A stretch of DNA of 64,000 nt from the IMG/VR virus record IMGVR_UViG_3300042691_050360, positions 1 to 64,000 of that record, one strand, 5' to 3'. This DNA is from a virus. Made by a program: the position numbers and the translations under genes. Under the pieces are notes generated by a model. It was not told where the DNA came from. It did no database searches and saw nothing but the letters and a program-made list of their open reading frames with translations. Shown here piece by piece: positions 5,508 through 53,186 of this stretch (the stretch's first letter is position 1; every line of letters starts with the position of its first letter).

Positions 5508-5549
5508 ATTATATAAATACGATATTATTAAAAAAAATCCTTATATTAC

Positions 5550-5583
5550 AGGTACCATTAAGGGCACTTCGTAAATATAATTA
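5550..5583 (+). promoter_or_regulatory. example of sigmaH-like leaderless promoter (AGG 34 nt upstream of start); divergent twin at 5508-5541 on minus strand drives cca
   Basis: Same geometry at 11 genes, see findings. Confidence 0.7.
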
Positions 5584-6678
5584 GTGAAGCAATTTAATTT
5601 CAAAGAAAGAGCTATATTAATTCATGGAGAAAAATACAATTATGACAAAGTTGACTACAAAGACACCATAACTCATATAGAAATCATATGCCCTATTCAT
5701 GGCTCGTTTTTACAAAAACCAAAAAGACATATTAAAGGTAGTGGTTGTCCAAAATGTGGTGGAACTAATAAACTAACACAATCTGACTTTATTGAAAGAT
5801 CTCAAAAAATTCATAAAAATAAATATGATTATAGTCTTTCTGTTTATGAAAATTATGAACATAAAGTTATCATCATTTGCCCGACGCACGGTGAATTTAC
5901 GCAGTCGCCACACATGCATCTTTCTGGACAGGGTTGCCCAAGGTGTGGCGGAACTAATAAACTAACACAGTCTGAATTTATTGAAAGATCTCAAAAAATT
6001 CATAACGATAAATATGATTATAGTCTTTCTGTTTATAAAAATTATGAAGAAAAAGTAATAATTGTTTGCAAAATGCATGGACAGTTTTTACAAACCCCGC
6101 ATATGCACCTATATGGAAATGGATGCCCCGCCTGCCGTGAAAATATTAAAAGAAGTTTAGAAGATTTTATTAAAATATCAAACAATGTGCACAATTTTAA
6201 ATACAATTATGACAAAACAATATATATAAATGACAGAACGGAGGTTATAATAACTTGCCCCAAGCATGGTGACTTTAATTCAGCTCCAAATAATCATATT
6301 TTTGGGGCAACAGGTTGCTATAAATGTAAATCTTCCAAGGGCGAAGAGCTCATTAGAAGATATTTAACTGAACAAAACATTCAGTTCGAAGAACAGAAAA
6401 GATTTTCTGACTGTGTAAATAAAAGATGTCTCCCGTTTGATTTTTTTATCCCTTGTAAAAATATTTTAATAGAATTTCAGGGCTACCAACATTTTAATGT
6501 AGTAAAAAGGTCAAAAACAATGGACGATAATGTATTAAAATTAAATCTTGAAAAAATACAACAAAATGACAAAATTAAAAAAGAGTGGTGTAAAAATAAC
6601 AATATTAAATTAATAGAAATAAGCTATTTAGAAAAAAAAGATATTAATGAAATATTGAAAAATCACTTGTTGGCTTAA
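5584..6678 (+). CDS. putative homing endonuclease: DUF723-type CxxHG repeats plus C-terminal PD-(D/E)xK (Vsr-like) domain
   Basis: Four CxxHG...GCxxC repeats; LPFDFFIP..LIEFQGYQH..DKIK nuclease motif. Confidence 0.85.
   Translation: MKQFNFKERAILIHGEKYNYDKVDYKDTITHIEIICPIHGSFLQKPKRHIKGSGCPKCGGTNKLTQSDFIERSQKIHKNKYDYSLSVYENYEHKVIIICPTHGEFTQSPHMHLSGQGCPRCGGTNKLTQSEFIERSQKIHNDKYDYSLSVYKNYEEKVIIVCKMHGQFLQTPHMHLYGNGCPACRENIKRSLEDFIKISNNVHNFKYNYDKTIYINDRTEVIITCPKHGDFNSAPNNHIFGATGCYKCKSSKGEELIRRYLTEQNIQFEEQKRFSDCVNKRCLPFDFFIPCKNILIEFQGYQHFNVVKRSKTMDDNVLKLNLEKIQQNDKIKKEWCKNNNIKLIEISYLEKKDINEILKNHLLA
5743..6048 (+). repeat. near-identical ~115-nt direct repeat with 189-nt period inside the DUF723 endonuclease
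   Basis: GGAACTAATAAACTAACACA...GATTATAGTCTTTCTGTTTAT at 5761 and 5950. Confidence 0.9.
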
Positions 6679-6740
6679 CCACACAATCTTATATTAGCTG
6701 AATTTCAGATGAAAACCTATGGAAATAAGCGGGCGAAATT

Positions 6741-7328
6741 TCAATTTCTTATATTTTTAACCACTTGTTTCCAATCCATTATGCTCAAGATTGCGTCTAT
6801 ATATCCTTCACGATCTGTGCCAAAATCTGCAAAATAGGCATGCTCGTACATATCTATAGCTCCAATGAGTTCACAGTTCCACATAGGGAAAGTATTCTGT
6901 GTATCTCCAATCACATTAATAATCATCTCGTGATCGTAGCAATATCCGATGAATGCCCATCCTCTGGCTGAAAGAGCAGTGGCTTTCAGATCGTTGATAT
7001 AGTTTGAGAATGTGCCATAATCTTCTTTAATCAGGGCAAGAAATTCTTTAGTTGGTTTGCCATCTCCATTGAGATGATTAAAAAACACTTTATGGTTTAA
7101 GAATCCTCCATATGAAAATGATTCAGCCATTTTTTGGCTTCGAACATCTGAGAACGTGGAATTTACATCTTTAAGGTTCTTTCTTTGATCGAGTGCTTCC
7201 ACAGCTTTGTTATTATTTTTAGCATATCCTTGCCAAAGCTTAAGATGTTCTTCGTTGGTTTTCTTAGAAACGCCAATTTTATTCAGTTTATTAACTGGAA
7301 GTTCTTTGGGAATTTCTAATTTTACCAC
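6741..7328 (-). CDS. Fe/Mn superoxide dismutase family protein
   Basis: EEHLKL..GY, NHKVFFNHL and DMYEHAYFAD metal-ligand motifs. Confidence 0.9.
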   Translation of the reverse strand: MVKLEIPKELPVNKLNKIGVSKKTNEEHLKLWQGYAKNNNKAVEALDQRKNLKDVNSTFSDVRSQKMAESFSYGGFLNHKVFFNHLNGDGKPTKEFLALIKEDYGTFSNYINDLKATALSARGWAFIGYCYDHEMIINVIGDTQNTFPMWNCELIGAIDMYEHAYFADFGTDREGYIDAILSIMDWKQVVKNIRN

Positions 7329-7375
7329 AATCTGTATTTAGAGGTAGAGTGGATGAATTCCTTTAATTAGATTAT

Positions 7376-8548
7376 GTGGAAGTATACAATCTGATACTAG
7401 ATCGGGGCTATTTAGGTGCCTTAAAGTATGCGAGCGAAATTGAAGATAAGAATTTTCGTTTAGCTTCAGAGATTGATCAGATTGTGTCTGAATTGTATCG
7501 CATTGCTAGTGGTGGTTCAGGATTTCGCTATGCTCAATCCGCGATGCCAAAGTTTAACACTTACACGCCTCGTTCGATGCCATCGGCCCCTGTTCAAACT
7601 AATGAACCCGAAAGCATTTCCACTCCTTCTTTTTCACCTGACTCTCGTCCTGCTGGAATGTCAGCACCCGGTGGGATAGGATCGGCGGCTGGTTCCATTG
7701 GTGGCCTCGTGCTAAAAATTAAAGGCCTTATAGAAAGTATGGATAGCGGAAAAATTCCGAAATCATATGGCCGGAGACTTATTAACCAATTGTTAGGCAA
7801 CACTCTCCTCGACAAGAGTCAGGTGAGAAAACTTTCACGTTTGGTTGATACAAAACAATGGACAAAAGCTACCCAATATGTTCAGCAAATTCATGACCAA
7901 TTAAATCCCGCAACCGCGACCACAAGTCCTTGGATCGGAGACAAGGCCAGAAAGTTAAAGACAAATCTTAAATTGGAAAAATCTAGATTAATTCTTAAAA
8001 TTCTAGAAGGTCTTGCAACTAAATTCCCATCACTTATGGGAGTTCTTCAGTTTATAAGCAAGAATGCGAAGTTTTTAGGAGCTTTAGCTATTCCTTTTGA
8101 TACTTATGATATTTACACAGACTATGAGAGAGAGGGATTATCATCTCGCGTAATTTGCAAAATTATTAGTATTATTCTAGGAATTAGTTCACTTATAGCA
8201 ACCGCCAGTGTTGCTGGTGCTAGTTTGGCACCTGGTCTTGCAGCCTTGTGGGCCATATCTTCATTTGGGTGCGGGTTCATTCCGCAATCAGACAAAAAAG
8301 AAGATGCTTATAAAAACTTAACACAATCTGAAATTGACAAAGCCGAATCCACGGTCACTTTAGAGAGTTTGCCACAATCTGATCAAAATCTGGTTCGAGG
8401 TCTATTCAATATCAAGAGCAAGGCAGATTTGATTAACAATCTTCGCGGTTTGAGAGATTCCAAGAAATTCGAGAAACCTGTTGAGTCCTTGGCTTATATT
8501 CAAAGGCAGCTTGCTTCAGGTAATGGTCAGATTGTGCCTATAGGTTAA
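7376..8548 (+). CDS. hypothetical protein, probable virion cargo; C-terminal hydrophobic segments
   Basis: 390-aa ORF; KYA/RLA/RIA/RYAQ motifs; AGG 34 nt upstream of the GTG. Confidence 0.6.
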   Translation: MEVYNLILDRGYLGALKYASEIEDKNFRLASEIDQIVSELYRIASGGSGFRYAQSAMPKFNTYTPRSMPSAPVQTNEPESISTPSFSPDSRPAGMSAPGGIGSAAGSIGGLVLKIKGLIESMDSGKIPKSYGRRLINQLLGNTLLDKSQVRKLSRLVDTKQWTKATQYVQQIHDQLNPATATTSPWIGDKARKLKTNLKLEKSRLILKILEGLATKFPSLMGVLQFISKNAKFLGALAIPFDTYDIYTDYEREGLSSRVICKIISIILGISSLIATASVAGASLAPGLAALWAISSFGCGFIPQSDKKEDAYKNLTQSEIDKAESTVTLESLPQSDQNLVRGLFNIKSKADLINNLRGLRDSKKFEKPVESLAYIQRQLASGNGQIVPIG

Positions 8549-8597
8549 CACTTAAATGTTAACATTTGAAAAAAAATAATGTTATTTAAGTGTTAAC
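8544..8597. terminator. long inverted repeat between convergent genes (bidirectional terminator candidate)
   Basis: GTTAACACTTAAAT...ATTTAAGTGTTAAC with inner TAACATT/AATGTTA. Confidence 0.65.
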
Positions 8598-8605
8598 GGC
8601 TGGCT

Positions 8606-8965
8606 TCATTTAAGAGTGAGGAGATACTTGAGTTTATTAAGTAGTCCTAGCATTTCATCTCTGATATTGAGAAGATCTGTATCTTTTTCTTCAAGTGCTT
8701 TTGGTAAATCTTCCGTAAGAACATCAATAAATGCATCAATCACGGCTTCTTTATTTTCTGATATATTAACGAGCGAGATATTAAATTTGTCTTTAGCAAC
8801 AGGTCTTTCATTTTTGCCAATATATACTTCCATGAATTCATCGATTTTTTCATCGAGTCCAGAGTATGTATCTCCAAAGGCATTATGTTCTGCGAAGCTC
8901 TTTGTTTGCCAATGGAACACTCGCATTTGGTTTTGAAGTGTCAGAAACAGTTCGACAATATTCAT
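8606..8965 (-). CDS. Dps/ferritin-like four-helix protein (DUF5856-like)
   Basis: FHWQT..AEH.AF...Y......DEFME pattern of Dps-type ferroxidase centres. Confidence 0.8.
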   Translation of the reverse strand: MNIVELFLTLQNQMRVFHWQTKSFAEHNAFGDTYSGLDEKIDEFMEVYIGKNERPVAKDKFNISLVNISENKEAVIDAFIDVLTEDLPKALEEKDTDLLNIRDEMLGLLNKLKYLLTLK

Positions 8966-9021
8966 AATAATTATTTAGTGAAAAATCAGATTGTGTCCTG
9001 GATTCGTAATCTTCAGGCAGC

Positions 9022-9875: not shown

Positions 9876-9879
9876 AATA

Positions 9880-11329: not shown

Positions 11330-11384
11330 GATTACATTATACATACTGGCAGGTTATTGAGCTGGATTGGGCGTATAAGTTTAT

Positions 11385-12287
11385 GTGGCCTCTAAAGATC
11401 CTTCTCTTCATGTTTTCGATTTTGATGATACATTATTCACAACAGACAACACAGTTGGCGTTTTGATTCCTGGTCGAGAGAGAATCGATCTTAATTCTTA
11501 TGAGTTCGGTCAATTAGAAAAAAACCATGAATTGCCCAGTATGGGTATTTCAAGAGAAGATTTAAAATCCGCGAAGATTTCGTTTGATAATTTCGAGCAT
11601 GTCAAGAACCCCCGTCCCATTAAAAAGAATCTTCTTATCTTTGGAAACATTTTGTTACACAGTCCTCAGAATTTATTCATTGTTACAGCCAGGGGTAGTG
11701 GATCTAACAAGGCTGATATTAAGAATATCATAGATGATTATTTTGGCCCGATTTTACCAGAGACGGGATTTGATATCGGCCACATTGTTACCAGAGATGA
11801 GCAAATGCATTATAAAGGTGATACAGCGGACAAAAAGAAACAAACAATCGAAGATCTTCAGGAGTTTAAAGGATTAAATAAGGTTCATTTCCTTGATGAT
11901 GCTCCTAAAAATGTGGAAAAAGTTGGTGAGATACCTGGTGCTAGAGCTCGCTTAGTGAAGCATCCCCATGAGGAAAAGGAAAACCAGGAAGATAATATAT
12001 TTAAAGGAGCTAGTAAAAAAATGCCAAGAGAAAACGTGCCACATAAAGTAGATGAAATTGCTGATTCGATTATTAAGCAAATGAAGAAAGATAAAAAAAA
12101 TATTTCTGAAGAAAAGATGTATGATATTGCTTATGGAACGGCTTGGAAGACTTATTACAAGCAGAATCCAAAAGAAAAATCTAAGCGTGAGAAGAAATCA
12201 GACGAAATTCTTAATAATATAAGAATAGCTGACATGCTTGATTCGATTGAATATTACGAGTTAGCAGATTTTGTATCAGAGCTTTAA
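11385..12287 (+). CDS. HAD-superfamily phosphatase with C-terminal extension
   Basis: DFDDT motif I, VTAR motif II, FLDD motif IV; tail with AYGTAWK and LD..EYYELAD motif. Confidence 0.8.
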   Translation: MASKDPSLHVFDFDDTLFTTDNTVGVLIPGRERIDLNSYEFGQLEKNHELPSMGISREDLKSAKISFDNFEHVKNPRPIKKNLLIFGNILLHSPQNLFIVTARGSGSNKADIKNIIDDYFGPILPETGFDIGHIVTRDEQMHYKGDTADKKKQTIEDLQEFKGLNKVHFLDDAPKNVEKVGEIPGARARLVKHPHEEKENQEDNIFKGASKKMPRENVPHKVDEIADSIIKQMKKDKKNISEEKMYDIAYGTAWKTYYKQNPKEKSKREKKSDEILNNIRIADMLDSIEYYELADFVSEL

Positions 12288-13273
12288 TTCGTAGATTTAA
12301 CCCAGATTTCAAGAGCTGGAATTGTTCCTAGGCCAGCAACAGAACCACTAGCTAGTGCAATCGATGTAATACCAAGTGCTTTATATGTGGAATTATTATA
12401 AATTCCAATATTTGCTCTTCCGATTAAGTTGGTTGTATTAAGATTGATTGTCGTACTAACTCCAGTAGATAGGTAAACAGTTAGACCCAAGTTAGAAACG
12501 ACACCTGTGCTTGCTCCTCCGGTTAAGGACGACGTACCGAATCTGAACTCTAAATATTCTGGATTTTGAATTGGTCTAAACGCGAACAAGTTAGTTGTGA
12601 GCGAACTGACTGGGCCACTGAGCGTGAGGGTGTTTGAATTATAATATCCGGTTACCGTTGTGCTAAGTGCGATATTCGCGGCTGTTGGTATAGATGCGGA
12701 GTTGCTGGCGACAATTATGTCACCTGGTAGAGCAAAATTAGAGATTGATGTTTGGAAGCCTGAAACAGCAACATTATTGCCAGAAATACTTACAGCGGTT
12801 GCAGTATTTTGCCTGTTAGTTGCAGACGAATTCGGTGGATAGATTACGAAGGCCGAGCCAGTCCAGGTTGCGAAACCCACTTGCTGAACTAATTCTTGAG
12901 TATTAGCTTGATACCACAATGATTTAAATGCGTTAGCCCAGGCGACATTTTTTGATGGGGTGATGCCAGTGAAATAATCCCTTAACGAAGATCCGTAAGT
13001 GTTTGTGAAGAAATTATTGACAGTCTGAGCTACCGATCTGGCTATATTGACTGATGCGTTGCTATAAACACTTTCAGCATTAAGATGGGCATTAACCACT
13101 GAGATGCCATTGGTTACATCTGATGTGCTCATGCTTGACAAGAATAATTGTCTAGCGGGAAAATAATTAATCAATGTTGAGGATGGGTTGTAAACTTCCT
13201 CAAATCCCTTCGCATAAGTTGAGCCAATTATGCCTTGGTAATTGTTAAAAAAACTTGTATCAGAAATAGCCAT
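12284..13273 (-). CDS. Ser/Thr/Asn-rich probable virion structural protein
   Basis: Composition typical of beta-rich structural proteins; no catalytic motif. Confidence 0.5.
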   Translation of the reverse strand: MAISDTSFFNNYQGIIGSTYAKGFEEVYNPSSTLINYFPARQLFLSSMSTSDVTNGISVVNAHLNAESVYSNASVNIARSVAQTVNNFFTNTYGSSLRDYFTGITPSKNVAWANAFKSLWYQANTQELVQQVGFATWTGSAFVIYPPNSSATNRQNTATAVSISGNNVAVSGFQTSISNFALPGDIIVASNSASIPTAANIALSTTVTGYYNSNTLTLSGPVSSLTTNLFAFRPIQNPEYLEFRFGTSSLTGGASTGVVSNLGLTVYLSTGVSTTINLNTTNLIGRANIGIYNNSTYKALGITSIALASGSVAGLGTIPALEIWVKSTN

Positions 13274-13300
13274 CCTGATACAAGTTTTCGGACTACGAAA

Positions 13301-13558
13301 TTAGTTTTCCTTCTTTGTTTGCATTGCGTGAACCATTGCCTTAACTTCTGGTTGCTTGAAAAAGTTGAATGTCAACTGATCAAAACCAAGAGCCATGACA
13401 ATTGCCTGAGGCAAGACCGAAAGTCCCGCTTCTACTGCAACTTTAAGATCTTGTGTGACGTTAAGTTCCTTACTGAAAGCAGTAAGGAAAGCTGTCAAGA
13501 CAAAGATAACTACCTTTTGAACCAAAAGGTTGAACTTAAAATCCTTAAAATAACTCAT
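13301..13558 (-). CDS. small membrane protein (holin-like)
   Basis: Two hydrophobic segments, strong SD AAGGAGGT. Confidence 0.5.
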   Translation of the reverse strand: MSYFKDFKFNLLVQKVVIFVLTAFLTAFSKELNVTQDLKVAVEAGLSVLPQAIVMALGFDQLTFNFFKQPEVKAMVHAMQTKKEN

Positions 13559-15044: not shown

Positions 15045-15623
15045 TTACCTCATTGTAGTTTCCACTAAATATTCCGGGATCATATTAAAAACCTCAACTC
15101 CAGAACCAGGAAGTTCAAGAACTACATGCTTACTATCAATTATTACAGGAAGATTAAGAATCTCCTCTGGAAATAAATTCAAGATCATTTTTGGAGTCAT
15201 CAGGTCATCAAAATCCCAGCTTCCCTTCAAATCGAAAAAATGATCATTGTAGATTTTTAAGCAATTTTTAAAAGAAGTTTTAATCTTAACTCCTTCTGAT
15301 TTTACAAGTTTTTCCACAAGATTGTGACTGGCAGTTTTTGGATTTGATTTTCCACCTTGAGAAGGTGTGTATTCAGTCATATTAGGACTCTTGCCCTTTC
15401 TCTTTTTCTTCTCGTTCTTTCTTTTGGCCTTAATTCGATTTTTTCTTTCTTTTTCATCAAGCGTCTTTGCTTTAGAAGCTGGTGTACAGACTGGGTATTT
15501 GCCTTTGTCAGCGTCAGATCGACCACATTCTTCGTAGCCGCCTTCCTTCTTGGGCCTTGATACATCTACCCACTTCTCCTCTTTAAACCACTCCTTGAGT
15601 CCAGCTTCCCTAAAGATACCCAT
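15045..15623 (-). CDS. conserved phage protein (DUF5872-associated, GLKEWFKEEKWVD type)
   Basis: GLKEWFKEEKWVDV...CGRS...YPVCTP motif; AGG 34 nt upstream. Confidence 0.65.
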   Translation of the reverse strand: MGIFREAGLKEWFKEEKWVDVSRPKKEGGYEECGRSDADKGKYPVCTPASKAKTLDEKERKNRIKAKRKNEKKKRKGKSPNMTEYTPSQGGKSNPKTASHNLVEKLVKSEGVKIKTSFKNCLKIYNDHFFDLKGSWDFDDLMTPKMILNLFPEEILNLPVIIDSKHVVLELPGSGVEVFNMIPEYLVETTMR

Positions 15624-15637
15624 TAATATTAGTTTCT

Positions 15638-16336
15638 TTATTTTGTAATTGATTCCTTTTTCAATAAAACATCACAAAATTCTTTAAAAATTTCATAAGT
15701 AGATGTATTTCTGCCAATATTTGCAGAGTAACATGCCAAAACTACATTCTCCTTGACATAACCTAACTCTCTGTTTATCCGATCTATGCTCGGTTGAAAA
15801 GGATATTTTTCAATTTCAGAAGGAACTAAAGGAACCTCAAACCAATAACATTTCCCTTTTTGCTGCTCAAACAGTTTCAAAACAAAATTTTCATCTATTT
15901 CTACTAAGTCTTTTGAGTGCTTCTTTGCATTTATTACTAGCATTTTTGCCCAATTTTTTACTCTATATTCCAAGGCAACCTTGCCAGCTGTTATACTGCG
16001 ACAAATTTTACAATAGTTTCTATAACCATCTTTTGTTTTTTCGTCTTTTGTATAATTTTCAATTGATAAATTTTTTTTACATCTAGTACATGTCTTAAAA
16101 AAAATCGCCGGAAAAGTTTTATTTTTTCTCTGATCTCTCCAGGTTTTTTTTGTTTGTTTAGCTTTTTCTTTATCTAGGCCGGTTCTTTTCTCGGGAATAC
16201 CTGATGTTCTTCTTTTCACTCTATCTTTTTCATTGATGCATGAACGGCATATTGAACCCTTACCATCCTTGGTCAATTTATTATTTGGGAAATCATCAAG
16301 ATTTTTTGTTGATTTGCAACAAGAACAGCTTTTCAT
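15638..16336 (-). CDS. putative homing endonuclease (CxxC zinc repeats plus His-Me finger)
   Basis: Two KxCxxC..F/Y......DG....C..C repeats; QQKGKCYW, PSIDRIN..GY..ENV...C..AN. Confidence 0.8.
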   Translation of the reverse strand: MKSCSCCKSTKNLDDFPNNKLTKDGKGSICRSCINEKDRVKRRTSGIPEKRTGLDKEKAKQTKKTWRDQRKNKTFPAIFFKTCTRCKKNLSIENYTKDEKTKDGYRNYCKICRSITAGKVALEYRVKNWAKMLVINAKKHSKDLVEIDENFVLKLFEQQKGKCYWFEVPLVPSEIEKYPFQPSIDRINRELGYVKENVVLACYSANIGRNTSTYEIFKEFCDVLLKKESITK

Positions 16337-16362
16337 ACATTCTATTTATACAAATAAAATGT

Positions 16363-16641
16363 TTACCCCTTGCTCTTGTATGTGCCGCCTTTTGATTTGT
16401 ATAATTTTGTTAAATATGCAGACCCATAAGCACTAGGCCAAACATCAAATTTAGCTTTAGCCTGTGATTTGCATTTGTTATATAACGCCATATTAGATGG
16501 CACATTCTTAGAAGTCCCCTTGTATTTAGGCTTCTTCTTAGCTAGTCGAAGAGCAAAATCAAGCATCGCCTCAGCCAGGGCTATGTTGCCATTTTCGTAT
16601 TCATAAATACTTTGATCGACAATCTGAGAAATTCTTAGCAT
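16363..16641 (-). CDS. DUF5872-like small basic protein
   Basis: P.NMALY...K..AKAKFDVWPSAY.S..L.K.YK.KGG.Y motif. Confidence 0.65.
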   Translation of the reverse strand: MLRISQIVDQSIYEYENGNIALAEAMLDFALRLAKKKPKYKGTSKNVPSNMALYNKCKSQAKAKFDVWPSAYGSAYLTKLYKSKGGTYKSKG

Positions 16642-16658
16642 AAAATCTATTTAAGATT

Positions 16659-17345
16659 CTATGCTTCATTTCCCTCTACATCTTCCACTACGAAACAGCT
16701 GGTGTATCTTGACCAAGATTTGTCTGTTCCTGATTCAAAAATTTCTTCTCTTGTGCCGTTAAGTAATGGTTTGAGTTCTTCTGTGATCCAGTTTTTAAAT
16801 TTCAATTTATCAAATTTAACAGGAATCCAGGCTAATTCGCCAGATAAATTGCCAAAATTTAGATCGAAATCGAATTTTTTGGGCTGGAATGCAATTAGGC
16901 CAAGACCCTCTATTTTCTTGGATTCTCCGCGTAGGGGTTTCTCAAGAGCGTATGCGTACGCCATAAGCTGTAGGAAGTAAATATGAGAAAGTTTTTCTGA
17001 GATATGTGTGGTTTTATAATCAACCACAAAATAATTACCATTCAATCTGTCAAGTAAACAATCTATTTTACCTTTGAAGCCCACTTTGAAATCACCCAGT
17101 TCAATTAATTGACTTTGGACGTAGATATCATCGTGCGTGATGTGCCCCTCGGGTGCACCAGTTACAATATCTGTACATGTGACTTTTTCAAAGGCATCTT
17201 TCATGCACGAGTCGATTGTATTAAATACTGAAGGGAAAGCTTGCTTAGGTCTTTGAATCTCCAAAACATACTTATCATAAAATCCTATTTTAGAGTCAGA
17301 CCAGAAATAGGAAAGATCAGAAGGCGAGAGCCATATTTCTTTCAT
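16659..17345 (-). CDS. PD-(D/E)xK RecB/Cas4-like nuclease
   Basis: LSPS, GKIDCL, VVDYKT, QLMAY motifs. Confidence 0.85.
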   Translation of the reverse strand: MKEIWLSPSDLSYFWSDSKIGFYDKYVLEIQRPKQAFPSVFNTIDSCMKDAFEKVTCTDIVTGAPEGHITHDDIYVQSQLIELGDFKVGFKGKIDCLLDRLNGNYFVVDYKTTHISEKLSHIYFLQLMAYAYALEKPLRGESKKIEGLGLIAFQPKKFDFDLNFGNLSGELAWIPVKFDKLKFKNWITEELKPLLNGTREEIFESGTDKSWSRYTSCFVVEDVEGNEA

Positions 17346-18965: not shown

Positions 18966-19020
18966 AGTTTTAATTTCTACTTTTAAACTTTGCAAACCTG
19001 ATTTCGTGTATAATTAAAGA

Positions 19021-20173: not shown

Positions 20174-20353
20174 TTATCTTCTGAATCTAATTTCGGGGTA
20201 AACTTTGTCGGGTTTGGCCTCTTCTGTATACACAATCATAGCAATCAATTCGTTAATTTTCGTTAATGTTTCTGTGTTCTGGGGTTCCACGGTGCTTCTC
20301 AATTCGTATATTTTATCAAGAACTAGATCTCTATCTATTTTAGCCAACGCCAT
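20174..20353 (-). CDS. hypothetical 59-aa protein
   Basis: Read by hand (MALAKIDRDLVLDKIYEL...); AGGG 33 nt upstream with AGAAAT box; below track cutoff. Confidence 0.65.
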   Translation of the reverse strand: MALAKIDRDLVLDKIYELRSTVEPQNTETLTKINELIAMIVYTEEAKPDKVYPEIRFRR

Positions 20354-20371
20354 AGTTTAAATTTCTGCAAA

Positions 20372-20791
20372 ATGATCAATTTCCCTGTGAATGAAATAAT
20401 TAAATCAGATTCTGGTTGGACTTGTAACGTCTTTATTTTCGATCAAATAAACGCGAGCGGATTATTTGTAAGTTCTGAAAGCTATGACAACATGACTGTT
20501 GATCCTTTTGTAGATTATTGCTATAGATATTATCGGCGTACCAAAAAGATTGTGATATCTTCCTCTAAAGTAATTGATTTTAATTACTGTGCGTTACATT
20601 TCCAATACACACATTGGAAATGTTTAATATGTAGGAAATTAAGTCACATTTCCGAGCCAGATTGTTTTTGTCCGTCGTATAGTAAATGTTGGACTCCTGT
20701 AGATGGAATTATTTCGGGTGTTTTATTTTCTAATGAATTAGATTTCCCTTATCACTTCAGCGATAATAGTCTTTCAAACATAATTTTATGA
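20372..20791 (+). CDS. hypothetical Cys-containing protein
   Basis: ATGA overlap with the sbcC-N gene. Confidence 0.6.
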   Translation: MINFPVNEIIKSDSGWTCNVFIFDQINASGLFVSSESYDNMTVDPFVDYCYRYYRRTKKIVISSSKVIDFNYCALHFQYTHWKCLICRKLSHISEPDCFCPSYSKCWTPVDGIISGVLFSNELDFPYHFSDNSLSNIIL

Positions 20792-43807: not shown

Positions 43808-44783
43808 TAAATACAGGCCCAAATCTTTTTCTGAATTAATTCAGAGCAATTACAATAACGGGCTGTCGAAAGACAGCCTTACTCACCATGCATATCTATT
43901 CTTTGGCCCTCCAGGCACAGGAAAGACATCTGCGGCAAGATTGTGTATGGCTGAGTATCTTGATGAGAAAGATCTTGCTCAGGCAATCTCTGGCAATCAC
44001 CCAGACTATGTAGAAATCAATTGTGCAGTTAATAATGGCGTGGACGATATCAGAGCGATTGTGTCAGATGTAGTGAATACAATTCCGGTACAATCTGATT
44101 ACAAATTTATCATATTCGACGAGAGCCATATGCTTACAAGTCAAGCACAGAACGCCTTACTAAAGACAGTAGAAGAGCCGCCAGAGCATATCAAGTTCTT
44201 CTTCTGCACCACTGAAATTAACAAAGTTTTACCCGCAATTAGGTCAAGATGCCAGATTGTGCCGTTTTTGAAACTCTCAGATGACAATCTCACAAAAATA
44301 ATTAAGAATGTGTGTGCTGGTGAGCAAATTGATTTCAATAAAGATTCCGCACAAATGGTAGCTTCACTGTCTGATGGATCAGCTAGATCCGCCATAAATA
44401 TGCTTGAGCAATGCCAATCTGTATTTAGCTCTCCAGAATCTGTTGGTCAAATTCTTGGAACAACTAGCTTTGATAATTTTAGAAAGCTTACAGAGTTTAT
44501 TTGCGAAAAAAATAGCATTGAGGCAATCAGACTTCTTGATGAGCTATTTAACAATTCTGTTGATCCTGGATCTTTGATGAATAAATACGCGGATTATCTC
44601 GCTGATTTGATTACACGAAGACTAATTGACAAGAATAGCGTTCCCTTTGATGGCAAAAAAATGATGATAATTGCAGATTGTGTCACGGATATTTTGAAAG
44701 ACTTTAAGATATTACAGAATATAAAACTTATTTCAAAAATAAACGTACTAAAAGCTATGTCCAAAATCCACACAATCTTGTAA
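43794..44783 (+). CDS. dnaX: clamp loader subunit (DnaX gamma/tau-like)
   Basis: KYRP, HAYLF.GPPGTGKT, DESH, NALLKT.EEP, SRC. Confidence 0.92.
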   Translation: MTLYNKYRPKSFSELIQSNYNNGLSKDSLTHHAYLFFGPPGTGKTSAARLCMAEYLDEKDLAQAISGNHPDYVEINCAVNNGVDDIRAIVSDVVNTIPVQSDYKFIIFDESHMLTSQAQNALLKTVEEPPEHIKFFFCTTEINKVLPAIRSRCQIVPFLKLSDDNLTKIIKNVCAGEQIDFNKDSAQMVASLSDGSARSAINMLEQCQSVFSSPESVGQILGTTSFDNFRKLTEFICEKNSIEAIRLLDELFNNSVDPGSLMNKYADYLADLITRRLIDKNSVPFDGKKMMIIADCVTDILKDFKILQNIKLISKINVLKAMSKIHTIL

Positions 44784-44793
44784 AATTAATTTA

Positions 44794-45522
44794 ATGCAAC
44801 ATTGTGATCAAGATTTATCTATTTTGGCGAAAAAAGCAAAAGACGGTGACCAGAAGTCATTCGAAGAAATACTAAAAATTCTTGATCCTGACATTAAAAA
44901 GTTAGCTCATAAATATTACATCGTCGGCGGAGATAGTCAGGACGTAATACAAGAATGTCGGCTTGGGGTTTGGAAGGCTGTTAAAGATTTTGATGACAAA
45001 GCCGGAATGTCATTTAAAAACTTCAGCCTCAGTCTATGTGTCAAGAGACATCTTATAACCGCAATGTCTCACGCAAATACACAAAAATTCAGATTGCAAA
45101 ATGAAGCTGTGAGTCTTAGTTCGCCAGTTTCACAAAGTGAAGAAGAAGGCATGCAGACATATGCAGATTACATTCAAGATCCCAACAGTGACCTGCTGAG
45201 TAACTATATTATTGAAGAGGAATTTAACACCAATCTTCAAATGATTTCAGAGAAATTAACTAAACTTGAAATGTCTATCTTTGGGCAATATGCATTTTCA
45301 TCTTCTTATAAAGATATAGCAGATGCTTTAAAGGTTAAACCAAAAACAGTAGATAATGCCCTGATGCGGATAAGGAAAAAGAGCTCAGAAACTTACGAGG
45401 CCTATCTATCAACGCATAGCGTGATCATGTACGGGGTGTCAACAATTTACTCAGGAATATCTACACTCAATATATGCGAAAATGCAACAATAGGTATATG
45501 CTCAAATATGTCTATTTTTTGA
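44794..45522 (+). CDS. RNA polymerase sigma factor, sigmaH-like
   Basis: YYIVGGDSQDVIQE...KAV.DF, SFKNF..LC.KR..ITA, SYKDIA, K.VDNAL.R. Confidence 0.88.
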   Translation: MQHCDQDLSILAKKAKDGDQKSFEEILKILDPDIKKLAHKYYIVGGDSQDVIQECRLGVWKAVKDFDDKAGMSFKNFSLSLCVKRHLITAMSHANTQKFRLQNEAVSLSSPVSQSEEEGMQTYADYIQDPNSDLLSNYIIEEEFNTNLQMISEKLTKLEMSIFGQYAFSSSYKDIADALKVKPKTVDNALMRIRKKSSETYEAYLSTHSVIMYGVSTIYSGISTLNICENATIGICSNMSIF

Positions 45523-45555
45523 ATTTAGCACACACAATCTGAGCGTATATAATGT

Positions 45556-46650: not shown

Positions 46651-47483
46651 AAGGGGAGGCTTTTTTCATCCTAGAGAAATTATACGATCTCACGGAAGGA
46701 AAAAAGATTGAAATTAATCCCGAGAAAATCAATTCTTTCTCGTTGCTTGGCAGTCCTGATTACTATGTTTTCTTTGATCCAGATAAGGATACATTAGAAA
46801 AACACAATCTTGATAATTTCATAATATGCTTCATGGATAAGAACGTAGATCAGAGGCTTGATTACATTAAAAAAATCAAAAAAAATGCTACACTGTTAAG
46901 TTTTGATCCAATTCCTACTACAGACCCTGAGTCTTTAAAAAAGGTTTTTCCGAAGTTCAAGGTGGATTTATACTCCTTGCCGTTCAAGAAAACAGGATTG
47001 AAGTACAAGGGTAGTAAGCAAAATTATGAATGGTTCGATTTGTGTTTAATTTCTGATATCTATACCCTAGGAGATGTTAGCATATTCGGGAAGATTTTTG
47101 ATTCTTATTTCGACATTTGGCTTTTCTCCGATTTACTTTGGAGCGGGAATGTCAAGTGCATGGAGCAAATCAAAAACATCAATGATAAAAACTTCGAAGA
47201 TTACTTCAATAGAATCCGCGAAACTTCTAAAGACTATATCGAGGTATATCAAACTGGGGCGAAAAATCTTTACTCTCACAAACAACTATATGCCGAGTCT
47301 TTAATTAATAGCGATTTTCGATTTGCTAAGATCAAAGAGAAACTAAATCTTCTCAAGCCCGAAGGGGTTCTAGATTGTATTGGTTCATTTGATGTATGTT
47401 TAAAAAATGTTAGAGAGGGATCAAACCCGAAAGTAGAATTAATAAAGTTATTTTATAAATTCAAAAACAATGCTGTCAAATGA
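46632..47483 (+). CDS. hypothetical protein, possible HolA/delta-like subunit
   Basis: N-terminal YILEGE and position beside dnaN/dnaX. Confidence 0.4.
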   Translation: MSNYILEGEAFFILEKLYDLTEGKKIEINPEKINSFSLLGSPDYYVFFDPDKDTLEKHNLDNFIICFMDKNVDQRLDYIKKIKKNATLLSFDPIPTTDPESLKKVFPKFKVDLYSLPFKKTGLKYKGSKQNYEWFDLCLISDIYTLGDVSIFGKIFDSYFDIWLFSDLLWSGNVKCMEQIKNINDKNFEDYFNRIRETSKDYIEVYQTGAKNLYSHKQLYAESLINSDFRFAKIKEKLNLLKPEGVLDCIGSFDVCLKNVREGSNPKVELIKLFYKFKNNAVK

Positions 47484-48024
47484 TTATATCCACATAGACC
47501 ATTTAGTTGAAAGAGTCAAACAAGGCGAATATGATGCTTTACATGAACTTTGTGACTTTTATAAGCCATTTATAGCGTCTTCAGCGAGCAGGGTTTGCAA
47601 TAAATACAAGACCGTGGAGAAAGATGATTTAATCTCTGAAAGCGTATTCATATTGAAAGAACTATGTAAAATATACGACAAAGACAAAAGTTTTTTCTCT
47701 TATTTTCTTGAAACAAGAATGCAATCTTACATGATAGCTAAGGTCAAGTCAAAGTATTGTGAAAATGTGACGATTATACCCCTTAGCGAACATGATTCCT
47801 ATGAGCCTTGCGAGAATTGCACCTTCTTTGAAGACCACACCGAGCTAAGAGATGAAATTGATAATTTGCCCGATAAAATGCAACAGATTATAGAAATGGT
47901 GTACTTTAAACAACTCACACAAGATGAATGTGCAGTGATTTTAAATATCTCACAGGCGGCAGTAAGCAAGAGATTAAAGAAGGCTATTGAAAATCTAAGA
48001 GAAAAATTAGAGAATCGGTTATAA
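47470..48024 (+). CDS. sigma-70 family sigma factor (regions 2 and 4)
   Basis: DDLISE..YD..F..F; LP......YF..LTQDECA..L.ISQAAVSK. Confidence 0.88.
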   Translation: MLSNDYIHIDHLVERVKQGEYDALHELCDFYKPFIASSASRVCNKYKTVEKDDLISESVFILKELCKIYDKDKSFFSYFLETRMQSYMIAKVKSKYCENVTIIPLSEHDSYEPCENCTFFEDHTELRDEIDNLPDKMQQIIEMVYFKQLTQDECAVILNISQAAVSKRLKKAIENLREKLENRL

Positions 48025-48823: not shown

Positions 48824-48856
48824 TTATACAGCCCGTTGCTACAACAGGCTGTATAA
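48824..48856. promoter_or_regulatory. hairpin overlapping the TATAAT box of the putative terS gene
   Basis: TTATACAGCC-C-GTTG-CTA-CAAC-A-GGCTGTATAA; TATAAT 48852-48857, ATG 6 nt later. Confidence 0.6.
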
Positions 48857-48863
48857 TTCAAAT

Positions 48864-49547
48864 ATGACATCATCAAACGAGCCTGTAATTGACAATATCA
48901 TCTTAGATGATTCAAGTCTATTAAAGATAGAAGATGGCGATGATATTATGCTTTTCAGCAGTCTCAAGGCAGACGCCAGGCCTATTATCCCATATAACCT
49001 AAATGTATCTGGCATAGAATACCCTCAATTGTATTCTGGTAAATGTGCGATTTGTAACTCCCCGCACAGAACATTGCTTGAACATGTCTATATTGATTGT
49101 GGAAAAAAGATCAACACCACAATCAAGTTTTTTGAAAGGCACTTTCGGGCAAAATTGAACTGGACTCAGGTCAACCAGCATATTAAGTTTCACTGCGATT
49201 TAAATAAAATTGAAACTCCTGGATTGCTTCACTATGAAGATAGAGAGCATGAAGTTTCAAGATGGAAATACAGAGAATATGAACTTGCGGAAACAATGAT
49301 TCTTATGGAGATTAATGATGTCAGAGGAATCAATGCAAGATCTCCCGACGACATCCTTAAAAGAGCATCAATGATCGAAAAACTCACTGGCAAACTGCTA
49401 TTGATTAAAGAAAAGAGAGATGATAATTCAATGGGGCTACCTAATGTTTTTGAAGTTCTGCATGACCTTCACAACCAGATGATCAACGAAGAGGATCAAA
49501 GAATTATTCGAGAAAAGGTTAAATTCCTAAAGCAATCTATTAGTTAA
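48864..49547 (+). CDS. putative terminase small subunit
   Basis: CxxC...H...H plus helical body, directly upstream of TerL. Confidence 0.55.
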   Translation: MTSSNEPVIDNIILDDSSLLKIEDGDDIMLFSSLKADARPIIPYNLNVSGIEYPQLYSGKCAICNSPHRTLLEHVYIDCGKKINTTIKFFERHFRAKLNWTQVNQHIKFHCDLNKIETPGLLHYEDREHEVSRWKYREYELAETMILMEINDVRGINARSPDDILKRASMIEKLTGKLLLIKEKRDDNSMGLPNVFEVLHDLHNQMINEEDQRIIREKVKFLKQSIS

Positions 49548-49557
49548 CGGCAGATAA

Positions 49558-51663
49558 ATGGACAAGAAAAAGCAACAAAAGCAAGCAATGGAGCAGCGGG
49601 AGAAAATGATCCGCGATGCTGCAAAGCTAGAGCAAATTTTTGCTCAATTTGAAGGAGATGAAGATTTCGAATCTCAATACACTTCGCGTTACGAAGTTCC
49701 AGCCCCCGAACCTAAAGACACATCTAAATACAATCCGAATAAGCTAGTTGACATTGAGACATTCATCACGCATCCGTTCTTTTTAAATCTAAGGCCTTAT
49801 CCCTGGCAGATTTTAGCACTTAAATTATTTTACGCTGGTGCTGAAGGTAATACCATTCTTGAATTCAATGAAGCTAAGAAAGAAGAAGTTACTGGGTGTG
49901 GAGATTGTGTTTGGAAATATGTTGTTGATAATGAAATTGACTGTGCAAAAAAAATCGAAGAAGAAGATAGTTACCAACCAGTTTTGAAGCCATTCAATTC
50001 GAGATGTCTTCAGTGTCTTCGGTGCCCAGTTCAGACTCGCAAAACTAGACTAGAGCATGAAATTAAAATTGCGGCTGATAAAGAGTCTGAAAAATTAATG
50101 ACAGATATTTTAGAAAATGAATTGGAAGATTTATTCCAATCTGAAATAGATTTAATTGATGAGATTCCAGATGAAGCCGTGAAGATGCAAATCAAAAATA
50201 AAATTAGAAGTAAATTTCAAGAACTTGTTCTAATTATCGGCCGACGAGGCTCCAAATCGTTTATGACTGTTGCTATTGCTCTTTATGAACTGTATCGACT
50301 TTTGTCAATGAAGCATCCACAGAAAAAACTAGGATTGCCAGATTTTCAAGAAATCGTAATTCTTAATGTTGCTAAAAACGAAGATCAGGCAAAAGATTCT
50401 ATTTTTACGCCGATGAAAAATAGTGCCGTTGCATCTCCCTTCTTTCAAAAATATATAGGTGTAGATAATGTTCTGGAAATGAAGTTTCTTACAGAAAGGG
50501 ATATTGAGGAAAACGACAGGAGAAAAGCAAGAGGACTTGCTGAGCTAGATGGAACCATTATTTTAAAATGCGGATCTTCATCTGCTTCTGGCTTGGTTGG
50601 AAAAACATGTTGGTGCATCATTCTCGACGAGCTTGCTGCAATGGCAGGAGACAACCCCAACTCGGGGATGGATAAAAAACTATACGATGAGCTAAAGCCG
50701 TCCATCGCAACCTTCGGTAAAGAAGGAAAAATAATTTGTCTTTCTAACCCTAAGGGACCTTTCGGTCAACTATTTACATTATATAACACGAGGCTTGAAG
50801 ACTCAATGACGCTAGTGTTAAAAATTCCAACGTGGCAGATTAATGCAAATATTGATAAGCTCTGGCTTGCGGCACAAAAGAAGAATGACCCCGTAGAGTA
50901 TAATATGCAATTCGGGGCTGAATTTGGAAATAACTCGCAAAATCCTTACTTATCGCCAGAGGATGTTGATTATGCATTTGTTAATTCTAACCAAATAACA
51001 AGATTAGAAAAAAGGGATACGGCTGGCGAATACTATTGCCATGTAGATCCGGCTAACAGATCGGATTACTATTGTATCGCTGTGGCTGAGGCGATCCCAA
51101 CAGGAATAACAGATGTGAACGGAAAGATGATTAAATCTTTCAATATTGTTCATTTACATTTTTGGGCACCTCAGAAGATGAAACAGCCCGTGCCTGTCAG
51201 AGAGGTTGAAGAATATTTAATAAATCTGCACTCAAACTTTAGGTTTAAGCAAATAAGCTTTGATCAATGGGGCTCCATGGAGACGATAAATAAATTACAG
51301 CAAATGGGGCTACCAGTTGTTCTTCGAGTATTCAACAAAGAATATAAAGACAAGATTTATCTCAATCTTTTAGAGGTTTTCAGAGATAAGAGAATCCGTT
51401 TCTATAAAATGTCAGCGGGCAGAGTAAAAGACTCAAGGGAGCAATGGATGGAAATTAATGAGATACCAGAAGCTAAAGACCAATTTACATTTTTGCAGAA
51501 AAAATGGAAAAATGGAAGGCAGGTTATCGAGGCACTTTCTGGATACAAAGATGATATCCCAGATGCCGTGGCTGCGGCGATTCACGAAGCAAATTCTGAC
51601 TCTGTTTTAATGCGAACCTTGCCAAGGGCTAGGGTTGCCTATACCGGTGGTCGGATTAGGTAA
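49558..51663 (+). CDS. terminase large subunit
   Basis: YPWQ, GRRGSKS Walker A, ILDELA Walker B, SNP, nuclease HVDPA/FDQW/DDIPDA. Confidence 0.9.
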   Translation: MDKKKQQKQAMEQREKMIRDAAKLEQIFAQFEGDEDFESQYTSRYEVPAPEPKDTSKYNPNKLVDIETFITHPFFLNLRPYPWQILALKLFYAGAEGNTILEFNEAKKEEVTGCGDCVWKYVVDNEIDCAKKIEEEDSYQPVLKPFNSRCLQCLRCPVQTRKTRLEHEIKIAADKESEKLMTDILENELEDLFQSEIDLIDEIPDEAVKMQIKNKIRSKFQELVLIIGRRGSKSFMTVAIALYELYRLLSMKHPQKKLGLPDFQEIVILNVAKNEDQAKDSIFTPMKNSAVASPFFQKYIGVDNVLEMKFLTERDIEENDRRKARGLAELDGTIILKCGSSSASGLVGKTCWCIILDELAAMAGDNPNSGMDKKLYDELKPSIATFGKEGKIICLSNPKGPFGQLFTLYNTRLEDSMTLVLKIPTWQINANIDKLWLAAQKKNDPVEYNMQFGAEFGNNSQNPYLSPEDVDYAFVNSNQITRLEKRDTAGEYYCHVDPANRSDYYCIAVAEAIPTGITDVNGKMIKSFNIVHLHFWAPQKMKQPVPVREVEEYLINLHSNFRFKQISFDQWGSMETINKLQQMGLPVVLRVFNKEYKDKIYLNLLEVFRDKRIRFYKMSAGRVKDSREQWMEINEIPEAKDQFTFLQKKWKNGRQVIEALSGYKDDIPDAVAAAIHEANSDSVLMRTLPRARVAYTGGRIR

Positions 51664-51690
51664 AATCTAAGTTAATTTAGAAATTTAAAA

Positions 51691-52722
51691 GTGATGAGTA
51701 TACGGCTTGGTCAATTTGGGGGCGTGGGGGGTCAATATGCTCCAAATGCTCCAGGCGGATCTCCGAATTTCCAAGGCGGGTCTAGCGGACACGCTGGATA
51801 CGGAATAAATAATTTCTCGGGTGACATCTCATTAGATGACCTGATGGGTTTTTATCGTAAGCCGGACATACTTTCATTTGAAAGACCCATTGAAAGCTTG
51901 CTTGAAACCTTCCACGACAATCTTGAGAAAGATGCTGTGCCTTATCTTTTAGATTTTGATGAACGTGTTAAATTGAATCTAAAGAAGAAAATCCGAAACA
52001 AAGAGCAACATTTGAAAGATTTAGCCACAGAAAAGTCTACAGAGCCAACACCAATTAATAAAAAAATCAAGACTGTGGAGGAGTTGCTTCAGAAGTTTAG
52101 AAGGAACGATGGTATTGATTTTAACAAGATGGCCGCTAAAACATCAAGCTATTTTCGCCCGAAAACTGCACCACCTTTACTAGATCAATTCCTGCCAACA
52201 GTAGAAGAATATGAAGATGAAGGCAATCCTCTTAATCTAACAGGAAACAAGCTAAAGCAACCGTTTCTGGGGCCTTATGATCCCATGTATGAGCCAGAAG
52301 ATGGCATAGATAAATATGTTCAGCAAAAGCAAAGCCCAGAAAGAATTGATATGCATGCTTATTTCACGGGCTTGATGGATGCTGAACAGCCCGGTACCAC
52401 CCCTTCTTATAACGATCCAAAGCCAAAATATGACTTACCTTCCCCGATAACTCCGGAATCAAAAAAGAACAATAGAAGCTTAGAAGGTAAGCTTGAAGCT
52501 TTAAAAAACAACACAAACAATCTTGGTGGTCAAGGAACTAATATGGAATACACCCTTGATTGGGACAGGATGCTTAAAGGACAGTATCCAGAGCGAGGAG
52601 TTACCAATGAAGGGCCGTATGAAAACTCTGGATTAAATGATTATTCTCAAAATGATATGCTTAGCGTTTCTGACTCACCTATGTACAGCAGAAATCCTTA
52701 TTTCGGGGTGAGTATACTTTGA
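51691..52722 (+). CDS. hypothetical head-cluster protein
   Basis: Gly-rich N-terminus; AGGT 33 nt upstream. Confidence 0.75.
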   Translation: MMSIRLGQFGGVGGQYAPNAPGGSPNFQGGSSGHAGYGINNFSGDISLDDLMGFYRKPDILSFERPIESLLETFHDNLEKDAVPYLLDFDERVKLNLKKKIRNKEQHLKDLATEKSTEPTPINKKIKTVEELLQKFRRNDGIDFNKMAAKTSSYFRPKTAPPLLDQFLPTVEEYEDEGNPLNLTGNKLKQPFLGPYDPMYEPEDGIDKYVQQKQSPERIDMHAYFTGLMDAEQPGTTPSYNDPKPKYDLPSPITPESKKNNRSLEGKLEALKNNTNNLGGQGTNMEYTLDWDRMLKGQYPERGVTNEGPYENSGLNDYSQNDMLSVSDSPMYSRNPYFGVSIL

Positions 52723-53159
52723 AAAATGTACTAAAGTCTATAGATTTACTTGAGCAAAATGGCTATTATAGACTGGCTGATTTATTTCAGAATCAGCTAA
52801 TTAAGACTGCCGCGTGGCCTTACAATCTTTCTGCTATAGATGAGCTTCCTCTTTCAGCTAGATTTTATACCTGGGACAGGAATGAACAAGATTTTAATGA
52901 ATTTGACAGAAAGTTTTACAAAGAGCTTTATTACAGGCTTCCGGATTACAGGAACCTTAAAACTGATTCGGATGAAAAATTAAATCTTGAGGGAGAGATG
53001 CATGGCGAGGATGCGGTTCCGGGGCCAGCTTATGTTGATCCTACACCAATGGCCAGCTCACCTTCTATGAACGGTGGGCTGGACTACTTCACCTGGGATC
53101 AGGCTCATGATATTAATAATGGCCCAGAGTATTGGAAAAATCTCAAGCCCAGAGGGTAA
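52719..53159 (+). CDS. hypothetical head-cluster protein with LE..G...LAD and KTA motifs
   Basis: SIDLLEQNGYYRLADLFQNQLIKTAA. Confidence 0.75.
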   Translation: MKNVLKSIDLLEQNGYYRLADLFQNQLIKTAAWPYNLSAIDELPLSARFYTWDRNEQDFNEFDRKFYKELYYRLPDYRNLKTDSDEKLNLEGEMHGEDAVPGPAYVDPTPMASSPSMNGGLDYFTWDQAHDINNGPEYWKNLKPRG

Positions 53160-53186
53160 AAACAAAATTAAAGAGAAAATTAATTT

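Follow-up and report, generated by a model that had tools for sequence, protein, structure and literature searches.

Start-codon-anchored AGG boxes as candidate SigH-like promoters of leaderless mRNAs in an uncultured lake jumbo phage

Why does the trinucleotide AGG stand exactly 34 nt ahead of so many start codons in a phage genome, and what would read it? The question is raised by the first 64 kb (64 000 nt; hereafter the window) of a single 166 522-bp virus contig (IMG/VR record IMGVR_UViG_3300042691_050360, here G000; GC content ~38%), in which an initial annotation had listed 11 start codons with AGG at this distance and two with AGG at 33 nt, and had read them as SigH-like promoters of a late regulon transcribed from the start codon itself. 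We refer to the arrangement AGG, 19 nt, (T/G)AAAT, ~7 nt, ATG or GTG as class B. In the explanation towards which, taken whole, we lean slightly, AGG would be the -35 element (at -34 to -32) and (T/G)AAAT the -10 element (at -12 to -8) of a bipartite sigma-70-family promoter, AGG-N19-(T/G)AAAT. Given its fixed distance to ATG or GTG, transcription would begin with the start codon's own first base (in a minority, 1-4 nt ahead of it), and the mRNAs, having no leader, would be translated without a Shine-Dalgarno (SD) site. Class B would be read by host core RNA polymerase carrying a phage sigma factor, most probably the SigH-like protein encoded at 44794-45522. A second start-codon-anchored class (class A, yGTAnAAT) would probably be read by the host primary sigma, with a cascade running from class A to phage sigma to class B.

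AGG does stand exactly 34 nt upstream of all 11 start codons and 33 nt upstream of 20353(-) and 51691(+), and the base after AGG is never C at these 13 sites, in agreement with the AGG(A/T/G) given for them. The check proposed by the initial annotation, a genome-wide motif scan with a position profile, reveals a strong contig-wide enrichment at -34. With crude longest-ORF calls over the whole contig, 17 of 109 genes have AGG there; looser calls give 18 of 151, with seven more at -33, against an average of ~2.4 at other positions (Poisson p ~1e-10). An unbiased scan of all 3- and 4-mers at every position from -60 to -1 places GTA at -13 (18/151), TAAA at -12 (19) and AGG at -34 (18) at the top (p ~1e-10 each), with no SD word within its top 40; AGGA at -34 is enriched in its own right (nine genes, 0.93 expected). 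A histogram over all start codons was too noisy, owing to coding periodicity, and was replaced by first-start and motif-first tests. Starting from the motif, 15 of the 71 AGG-N19-KAAWW matches have an ORF-opening start codon exactly at +34, and neighbouring offsets have at most two each. The loose pattern is not over-represented genome-wide (71 matches, 77 expected); it departs from chance in its placement with respect to start codons. There is no excess of canonical TTGACA/TATAAT sites (60 vs 60.3).

An alignment of 25 sites on AGG shows just one further stretch of conservation, (T/G)AAAT at +22 to +26, in which +23 and +24 are A in 23 sites. Its first base is G in nine, T in ten and A in six sites, and its fourth A in 18 and T in five; the fourth base of the -35 box, in these sites themselves selected on AGG, is A in 11, T in seven, G in six and C in one. 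The -10 box begins at +22 from the A of AGG (18-nt spacer), or at +21 (17-nt) in the -33 subtype. T-type and G-type boxes differ in their flanks: y precedes TAAAT, A precedes GAAA. A weight matrix trained only on two relatives (G001 and G003; Table 1) and then applied to G000 finds 14 sites at 14 bits or more (1.9 in shuffles). At 12 bits or more there are 24 sites, 20 of which lie in the non-coding 5.3% of the genome and 19 of which have a start codon at +33 to +36. A minority has AGG at -35 to -38 and predicted leaders of 1-4 nt (51694, 13273, 62526, 146991 and 134340), and short SD leaders follow the class B-like boxes at 55744 and 59823. Three earlier calls are refined here. AGG is indeed at -33 of GTG 51691, but the orthologues and the stored protein point to ATG 51694 as the likely true start, with AGG then at -36 and a leader of ~2 nt. 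The box pair with a short SD-type leader described at 55744 is present (AGG at -46, GGAG in the leader); its supposed counterpart at 13273 has the same box pair, and its predicted leader is ~4 nt.

The same AGG spike appears in the sigma-carrying relatives. In G001 (14/83 genes) no other signal is stronger, and the spike recurs in G003 (32, 20 and 14 of 457 genes at -34, -33 and -35), G005 (10/201) and G007 (15 at -35 and nine at -34 of 443, the box being mostly GAAWT). AGG is kept in place in 22 of 24 orthologue partners, with the -10 box retained and the spacer diverged: identity is 0.77-0.95 at +22 to +25 and 0.27-0.64 in the spacer. The choice of T or G at the first base of the -10 box is itself conserved between orthologues (0.82). 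Genes whose boxes are kept while the spacer is rewritten, at protein identities of 41-92%, are 8606, 16363, 53187, 80318, 94795 and 160282. Promoter class is likewise maintained gene by gene: class B stays B in six of seven pairs with G001 and nine of 11 with G003, class A stays A in nine of 11 and eight of 12, and cross-class or mixed changes amount to three orthologue pairs (one A to B, one A to AB, one AB to B). The 47-bp spacer between 7328 and 7376 contains two complete, overlapping divergent class B promoters and nothing else, an arrangement kept in G001; a second divergent pair occupies 5508-5583 (76-bp spacer). The 47-bp pair is near-palindromic, each -10 box lying beside the AGG of the other promoter. 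From pattern and conservation together, class B sites are very probably real promoters.

The position of the -10 box, at -12 to -8, is the one that a sigma-70-family -10 element takes relative to +1, so that +1 would coincide with the start codon's first base. Counting anti-SD pairing of -6 kcal/mol or stronger, SD-like pairing is found in two of the 45 promoter-proximal (class A or B) genes of G000 and in 26 of the 106 others (p = 0.003), and in G003 in three of 89 and 55 of 264 respectively (p = 5e-5), which bears out the earlier statement that these genes have no SD. The start codons of class A and B genes are ATG or GTG only, TTG occurring in 0/45 (G000), 0/89 (G003) and 0/27 (G001); many of the TTG calls in the remaining genes are artefactual and stem from the longest-ORF rule. 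A third of the class B starts in G000 are GTG, as are half of the T-type starts when three phages are taken together. In mycobacteria a 5' ATG or GTG is necessary and sufficient for leaderless translation, and TTG and CTG fail (PMC4633059); in Deinococcus a '-10 motif adjacent to ORF' is a validated signature of leaderless genes (PMC12340547). We regard it as quite probable that class B mRNAs are leaderless or nearly so. Transcription from the start codon itself, as first proposed, agrees with the geometry, the lack of SD sites and the ATG/GTG rule; it does not extend to the minority with 1-4-nt or SD leaders.

Class A, which the initial annotation did not mention, is the larger of the two putatively leaderless classes. 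Its box, yGTAnAAT, lies at -13 to -7 ahead of ~24 genes, is anchored to the start codon as class B is, has no conserved -35 region or signal and is conserved in G001, G003 and G005. Both sigma genes of G000 lie behind class A boxes, as do sigma genes in G001 and G002, and the replication module (20-50 kb) contains five class A promoters and no class B promoter. Since the sigma and replication genes follow class A boxes and no class B promoter occurs in that module, the arrangement fits a cascade in which class A would drive a phage sigma and that sigma class B. A third, anchor-free motif class was not seen in the intergenic regions of G000; most of the remaining spacers hold leadered class A-like boxes.

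Which sigma would read class B? The 242-residue product of 44794-45522 has sigma regions 2 and 4 (Pfam r2 and r4_2). Its five best NCBIfam matches are all SigH-type models (E = 1.7e-33 to 2.8e-26), the next being a generic ECF model at 2e-15, and its best match in the PDB is a sigma-H (3mzy; E = 9e-18), the others being at 7e-4 or weaker. It scores 107.6-115.9 bits on TIGR02859, NF006145, NF006147 and NF006148 (cut-offs 208-294.8) and 92.4 bits on NF006146 (cut-off 414). The description of this protein as SigH-like is thus apt as to its closest models, and the shortfall against the equivalog cut-offs marks it as a divergent SigH relative. Its clade is phage-specific, with more than 100 metagenomic relatives at 46% identity or more; cellular homologues, from Armatimonadota and Clostridia, are at most 31% identical. 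SigH promoters read AGGA, 17-18 nt, GAAT (PMC12456013). The earlier comparison with them is right as to the spacing of the boxes, which is equal (17-18 nt), but the -10 box is (T/G)AAAT rather than GAAT, with G in about a third of sites. The window also encodes a second sigma-70-family factor (47470-48024), overlooked in the initial annotation, which matches TIGR02937 over its full length (70.9 bits, cut-off 42.9) and Sigma70_r4 at 50.5 bits; its region 4 resembles that of FliA/WhiG/SigF, and the gene is conserved 2.5-3 kb downstream of the first sigma gene in G003, G005, G007 and G008. No phage RNA polymerase is detectable with Pfam in the complete relatives, the 99%-complete G003 included. 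Sequence comparison makes it likely that a phage sigma reads class B, and gives the SigH-like sigma in particular an even chance or slightly better.

Within class B, TAAAT-box promoters fill an accessory arm at 3-17 kb (CCA-adding/HD enzyme, superoxide dismutase, DUF5856 and proteins of no known family), and GAAAW-box promoters lie on the virion side (18965, 20353, 51691, 53187, 62526, 68594, 78009, 80318, 84491 and 146991). Pfam supports the superoxide dismutase (6741-7328, the SOD domain aligning from residue 20) and the CCA enzyme (3231-5507) named earlier as members; the HAD phosphatase named with them finds no support, a Pfam scan of nine class genes (3231, 5584, 6741, 7376, 8606, 11385, 15045, 15638 and 16363) having detected no HAD domain with E <= 0.001. 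Pfam also gives no family at all for 17916, 51691 and 53187. Searches of Pfam, PHROGs and the ESM Atlas returned nothing for 7376, 11385, 12284, 17916, 51691, 53187, 55744, 62526, 66776, 73286, 146991 and others (20174-20353 was compared with PHROGs only). Most class B genes having no recognisable function, the label 'structural' reflects position only. As for the 'late regulon' of the initial annotation, class B does occur on the virion side and is missing from the replication module, as the term would suggest, but the terminase operon has a class A box and most members are of no recognisable function. We give the class as a whole slightly less than an even chance of being late; the term can reasonably be applied only to its G-type, virion-side subset.

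Several observations weigh against the explanation we prefer. The 44794 sigma falls short of all the SigH equivalog cut-offs, and the -10 box departs from GAAT, its first base being T as often as G. The terminase operon (48864-51663), with its class A box, is a poor fit to a clean early/late split. A second sigma, equally conserved, is encoded 2.5 kb from the first, and a complete relative has a third; with two sigma genes in the window, the 44794 sigma is not the only candidate reader of class B. The differing flanks of T-type and G-type boxes mean that two readers are possible. It could accordingly be that the leaderless promoters are real and that their reader is not the SigH-like sigma: it might be the second sigma, or the host primary sigma with a phage activator at AGG, or the T and G types might be split between readers. 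We consider this unlikely, though it has several points in its favour. The second sigma adjoins the first in four relatives and is full-length by TIGR02937, but its region 4 resembles that of FliA/SigF, the known promoters of which are unlike the class B motif. An activator bound at AGG would replace the -35 contact while the host primary sigma sat on the -10 box, in the manner of the T4 MotA/AsiA middle promoters. T-type boxes (yTAAAT) do resemble weak primary-sigma TAnnnT boxes, whereas G-type boxes (AGAAAw) do not, and no MotA- or AsiA-like gene turned up, although none was searched for. The conserved T/G choice and the occurrence of the two types in different genome regions would suit a split between readers. 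Against the alternative as a whole, AGG and the spacing are identical in both subtypes, suggesting one -35 reader, and the AGGA/GAAT geometry is specifically the SigH one.

Other points touch the existence of class B as a separate class. The cGTA of class A is also found in three class B promoters by the strict call and in five by a looser one, so that the classes could be one modular class, AGG being an optional -35-type element of the holoenzyme that reads yGTAnAAT, used where the -10 box is weak, with no separate regulon or cascade. In both classes the -10 box is equally far from the start codon, and in Deinococcus the -35 element merely boosts -10-only leaderless promoters (PMC12340547). 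A single class is nevertheless improbable: membership is kept gene by gene with only three orthologue pairs changed, class A is devoid of any -35 signal, class B is absent from the replication module, and the phage sigmas have an intact region 4, which needs a -35 target. It is less probable still that the boxes are not promoters, AGG and the A-rich box being either RNA-level or translation signals within leaders of greater length or a side effect of terminator stems and of AT-rich gene starts. In two cases AGG does make up the 3' arm of a hairpin resembling a terminator (ahead of 106837-108900(-), which lies beyond the window, and ahead of the G003 orthologue of 8606), and GGAG within the -10 box at two to three sites (68594, 53187 orthologues) could serve as a distant SD. 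Yet two boxes 18-19 nt apart with a free spacer are the format of a sigma-70 promoter, the spacers diverge while the boxes stay, the overlapping divergent pairs in 47-bp and 76-bp spacers leave no room for upstream promoters, and SD sites are depleted.

Each ingredient of the preferred explanation, namely SigH geometry, phage sigma cascades, leaderless phage transcripts and -10-adjacent leaderless genes, is known. The SigH promoters of Bacillus subtilis, Clostridioides difficile and Sporomusa sphaeroides resemble class B in their AGG(A) -35 element, an A-rich -10 element 22 nt on and a spacer of 17-18 nt (PMC12456013). SigH is, like the 44794 protein, a small sigma with regions 2 and 4 only. 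Class B differs in its (T/G)AAAT instead of GAAT, in boxes that abut start codons and in its candidate sigma, which is phage-encoded and shares no more than 31% identity with the cellular homologues found. Leaderless mRNAs are not known to be a product of SigH promoters. SPO1, as is proposed for the phage here, puts its own sigmas on host core polymerase; like that phage, it keeps sigma genes behind another promoter class and has an AGG-rich -35 element; its Gp28 -35 box is reportedly AGGAGA. Its mRNAs, however, have SD leaders, and its -10 boxes differ from those of class B, for which the timing is inferred here. The SPO1 cascade uses host sigma-A early, Gp28 in the middle and Gp33/34 late (PMC13401047).

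The cI mRNA of lambda is a leaderless phage transcript. The Thermus phage phiYS40 (reportedly the subject of Sevostyanova et al. 2007) is said to make leaderless middle and late transcripts with host sigma-A from -10-type promoters, and reportedly no sigma for its leaderless promoters is known to be encoded by it. It is likewise a large phage with promoters on start codons, most of its later mRNAs reportedly being without a leader, whereas here there is a distinct -35 box together with phage sigmas. Genes of Deinococcus-Thermus (PMC12340547) and mycobacteria (PMC4633059) share with the present ones a -10 box near the ORF, the lack of an SD and the use of ATG or GTG only; those are host genomes served by the primary sigma, whereas the layout here is phage-wide with at least two promoter classes. 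In our literature search, no paper brought together a phage-encoded sigma and a leaderless regulon.

If class B is confirmed, alternative phage sigmas and leaderless expression, each known separately, would be combined in one compact design, the GTG at about a third to half of starts would hint at host translation biology, and only 34 bp would separate the -35 box from the first codon, with divergent pairs in 47 bp. The design would offer a rule for calling true starts and transcription units in a poorly annotated jumbo phage clade, of which the 51691/51694 correction is an example, and small, portable pairs of promoter and sigma for orthogonal transcription tests. A wider picture, to which we give somewhat less than an even chance, is of a whole clade of freshwater jumbo phages that express nearly all their genes from leaderless mRNAs, by way of two or more fixed-geometry promoter classes and of two or three sigmas of their own. 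The SigH-like sigma would define a conserved leaderless regulon that includes virion-side genes and stress/repair genes (superoxide dismutase, CCA-adding enzyme). If true, no phage sigma regulon designed around leaderless mRNAs would have preceded it, and mRNAs with a 5' AUG or GUG would have to be translated efficiently by the host or by ribosomes that the phage has modified.

Table 1. Candidate promoters, sigma factor genes and landmark genes of the contig, and the sigma-carrying relatives.
Feature	Position	Strand	Details
Candidate class B promoter of CCA-adding/HD enzyme gene 3231-5507	5508..5541	-	AGG 5539-5541, -10 box 5515-5519, ATG 5507; 13.6 bits
Candidate class B promoter of 5584-6678 (zinc-ribbon/DUF723 protein)	5550..5583	+	GTG start; back to back with 5507 promoter
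Candidate class B promoter of Fe/Mn superoxide dismutase gene 6741-7328	7329..7362	-	GTG start; 21.5 bits, top match
Candidate class B promoter of 7376-8548	7342..7375	+	GTG start; kept in G001
Candidate class B promoter of 8606-8965 (DUF5856)	8966..8999	-	AGG and TAAxx kept in G001 and G003; spacer differs
Candidate class B promoter of 11385-12287	11351..11384	+	GTG start; -10 region also with cGTA
Class B-like candidate promoter of 12284-13273	13274..13311	-	AGG at -38
Candidate class B promoter of 15045-15623	15624..15657	-	GAAAC box; not kept in G001 or G003 orthologues
Candidate class B promoter of 15638-16336	16337..16370	-	12.4 bits
Candidate class B promoter of 16363-16641	16642..16675	-	Weak DUF5872 match of product, 27.0 bits (cut-off 27.5)
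Candidate class B promoter of 17916-18965	18966..18999	-	GAAAT type; 17.4 bits; ATG 18965 also start of G001 orthologue
Candidate class B promoter of 20174-20353	20354..20386	-	GAAAT type; AGG at -33, same distance in G001 orthologue
Candidate class B promoter of gene after terminase	51658..51693	+	GAAAT type; start probably ATG 51694
Candidate class B promoter of 53187-53636	53153..53186	+	GAAAA type
Class B-like candidate promoter of 55744-56760	55698..55743	+	Predicted leader ~13 nt; 10.6 bits
Class B-like candidate promoter of portal gene 59823-62174	59763..59822	+	AGG 59763, TAAAA 59785; leader ~26 nt with AGGAG; 15.7 bits
Candidate class B promoter of 1394-aa gene starting 62526	62488..62525	+	GAAAT type; AGG at -38
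SigH-like sigma factor, 242 aa	44794..45522	+	Class A box tGTAAAAT upstream
Second sigma-70-family factor, 184 aa	47470..48024	+	In operon behind beta-clamp gene 45556; ECF-superfamily match
Class A boxes in window	44779-44786, 45545-45553, 29605-29611, 48850-48857, 19007-19014		
Class A boxes outside window	70351-70358		Another at 105 kb
DnaE-type polymerase (PolIII alpha)	29619-32825		Class A gene
RecJ	36333		Class A gene
Clamp loader	43794		
Beta clamp	45556		Class A gene
GMP reductase/IMPDH-type enzyme	13575		Class A gene
PD-(D/E)XK nuclease	16659		Class A gene
Two homing endonucleases	70364, 105233		Class A genes; best TATAAT boxes
Terminase	49558-51663		
Portal	59823-62174		
Relative G001			62 kb; sigma 77% identical to 44794 sigma
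Relative G003			347 kb, 99% complete; sigma 76% identical
Relative G002			38 kb; sigma 63% identical
Relative G005			178 kb; sigma 52% identical
Relative G004			104 kb; sigma 50% identical
Relative G007			379 kb, 100% complete; sigma 46% identical

The contig itself belongs to an uncultured lake jumbo phage. CheckV puts its completeness at 46%, which with complete relatives of 347-379 kb makes it about half of a genome of ~350 kb; the initial annotation did not bring out that the contig is only ~46% complete. A DNA search of a cultured-phage collection gave zero matches to the contig, and protein searches of phages gave distant matches only (Streptomyces, Mycobacterium, Thermus and cyanobacterial phages), so it has no close cultured relative. 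In an attempt to identify the host, WhiB was not found. G003 is tagged 'provirus', yet its GC profile has no host-like flank. The third sigma of G003 (320,400-320,987; ECF/SigW-like), which has no counterpart in the G000 fragment, matches Bacteroidota-type ECF subfamilies, a weak host hint.

A number of smaller features accompany the two promoter classes. A conserved AGATTGTGTGGTA(T), with a GTG start and a protein beginning MWY, directly adjoins many class B promoters; G000 examples are 6685-6718(-), 3231-5507, 94795 and 102822, and the feature is frequent in G001 and G003. An orphan promoter copy bearing AGATTGTGTGGTA(T) at 6718(-) scores 18.5 bits and has no ORF of 40 codons or more behind it. 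The run-in is the reverse complement of a genome-wide 9-mer, ACACAATCT, which we had considered as a general promoter element and rejected, only 14 of 92 copies of the 8-mer being near gene starts. Outside the window, 78009-78326 and 78363-78638 have identical sequence over the 50 nt upstream shown, including the class B promoter (78327-78360 and 78639-78672, both on the minus strand), and in the first two codons. At the left end of the window a class A box, cGTATAAT (449-456), stands between a terminator-like hairpin (413-446) and tRNA-Met (462-533); by its spacing, the predicted transcription start is no more than a base or two from where the mature tRNA begins, leaving nearly no leader.

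Other start-codon-anchored arrays are seen in the relatives. At ~84-104 kb in G004, ~25 small genes each follow ATCTTAAAA, 12 nt, TTCTATAATAGT and ATG, a uniform arrangement of another class. Some 45 small genes at 15-33 kb in G003 share an upstream cassette of ~60 nt (TTTCCAGG at -34, TAACA at -24), and ~25 genes of G007 have AATCCCC at -39 and CGGATATATAA at -14. The G003 cassette and the G007 boxes are further phage-specific anchored classes and may serve as early promoters.

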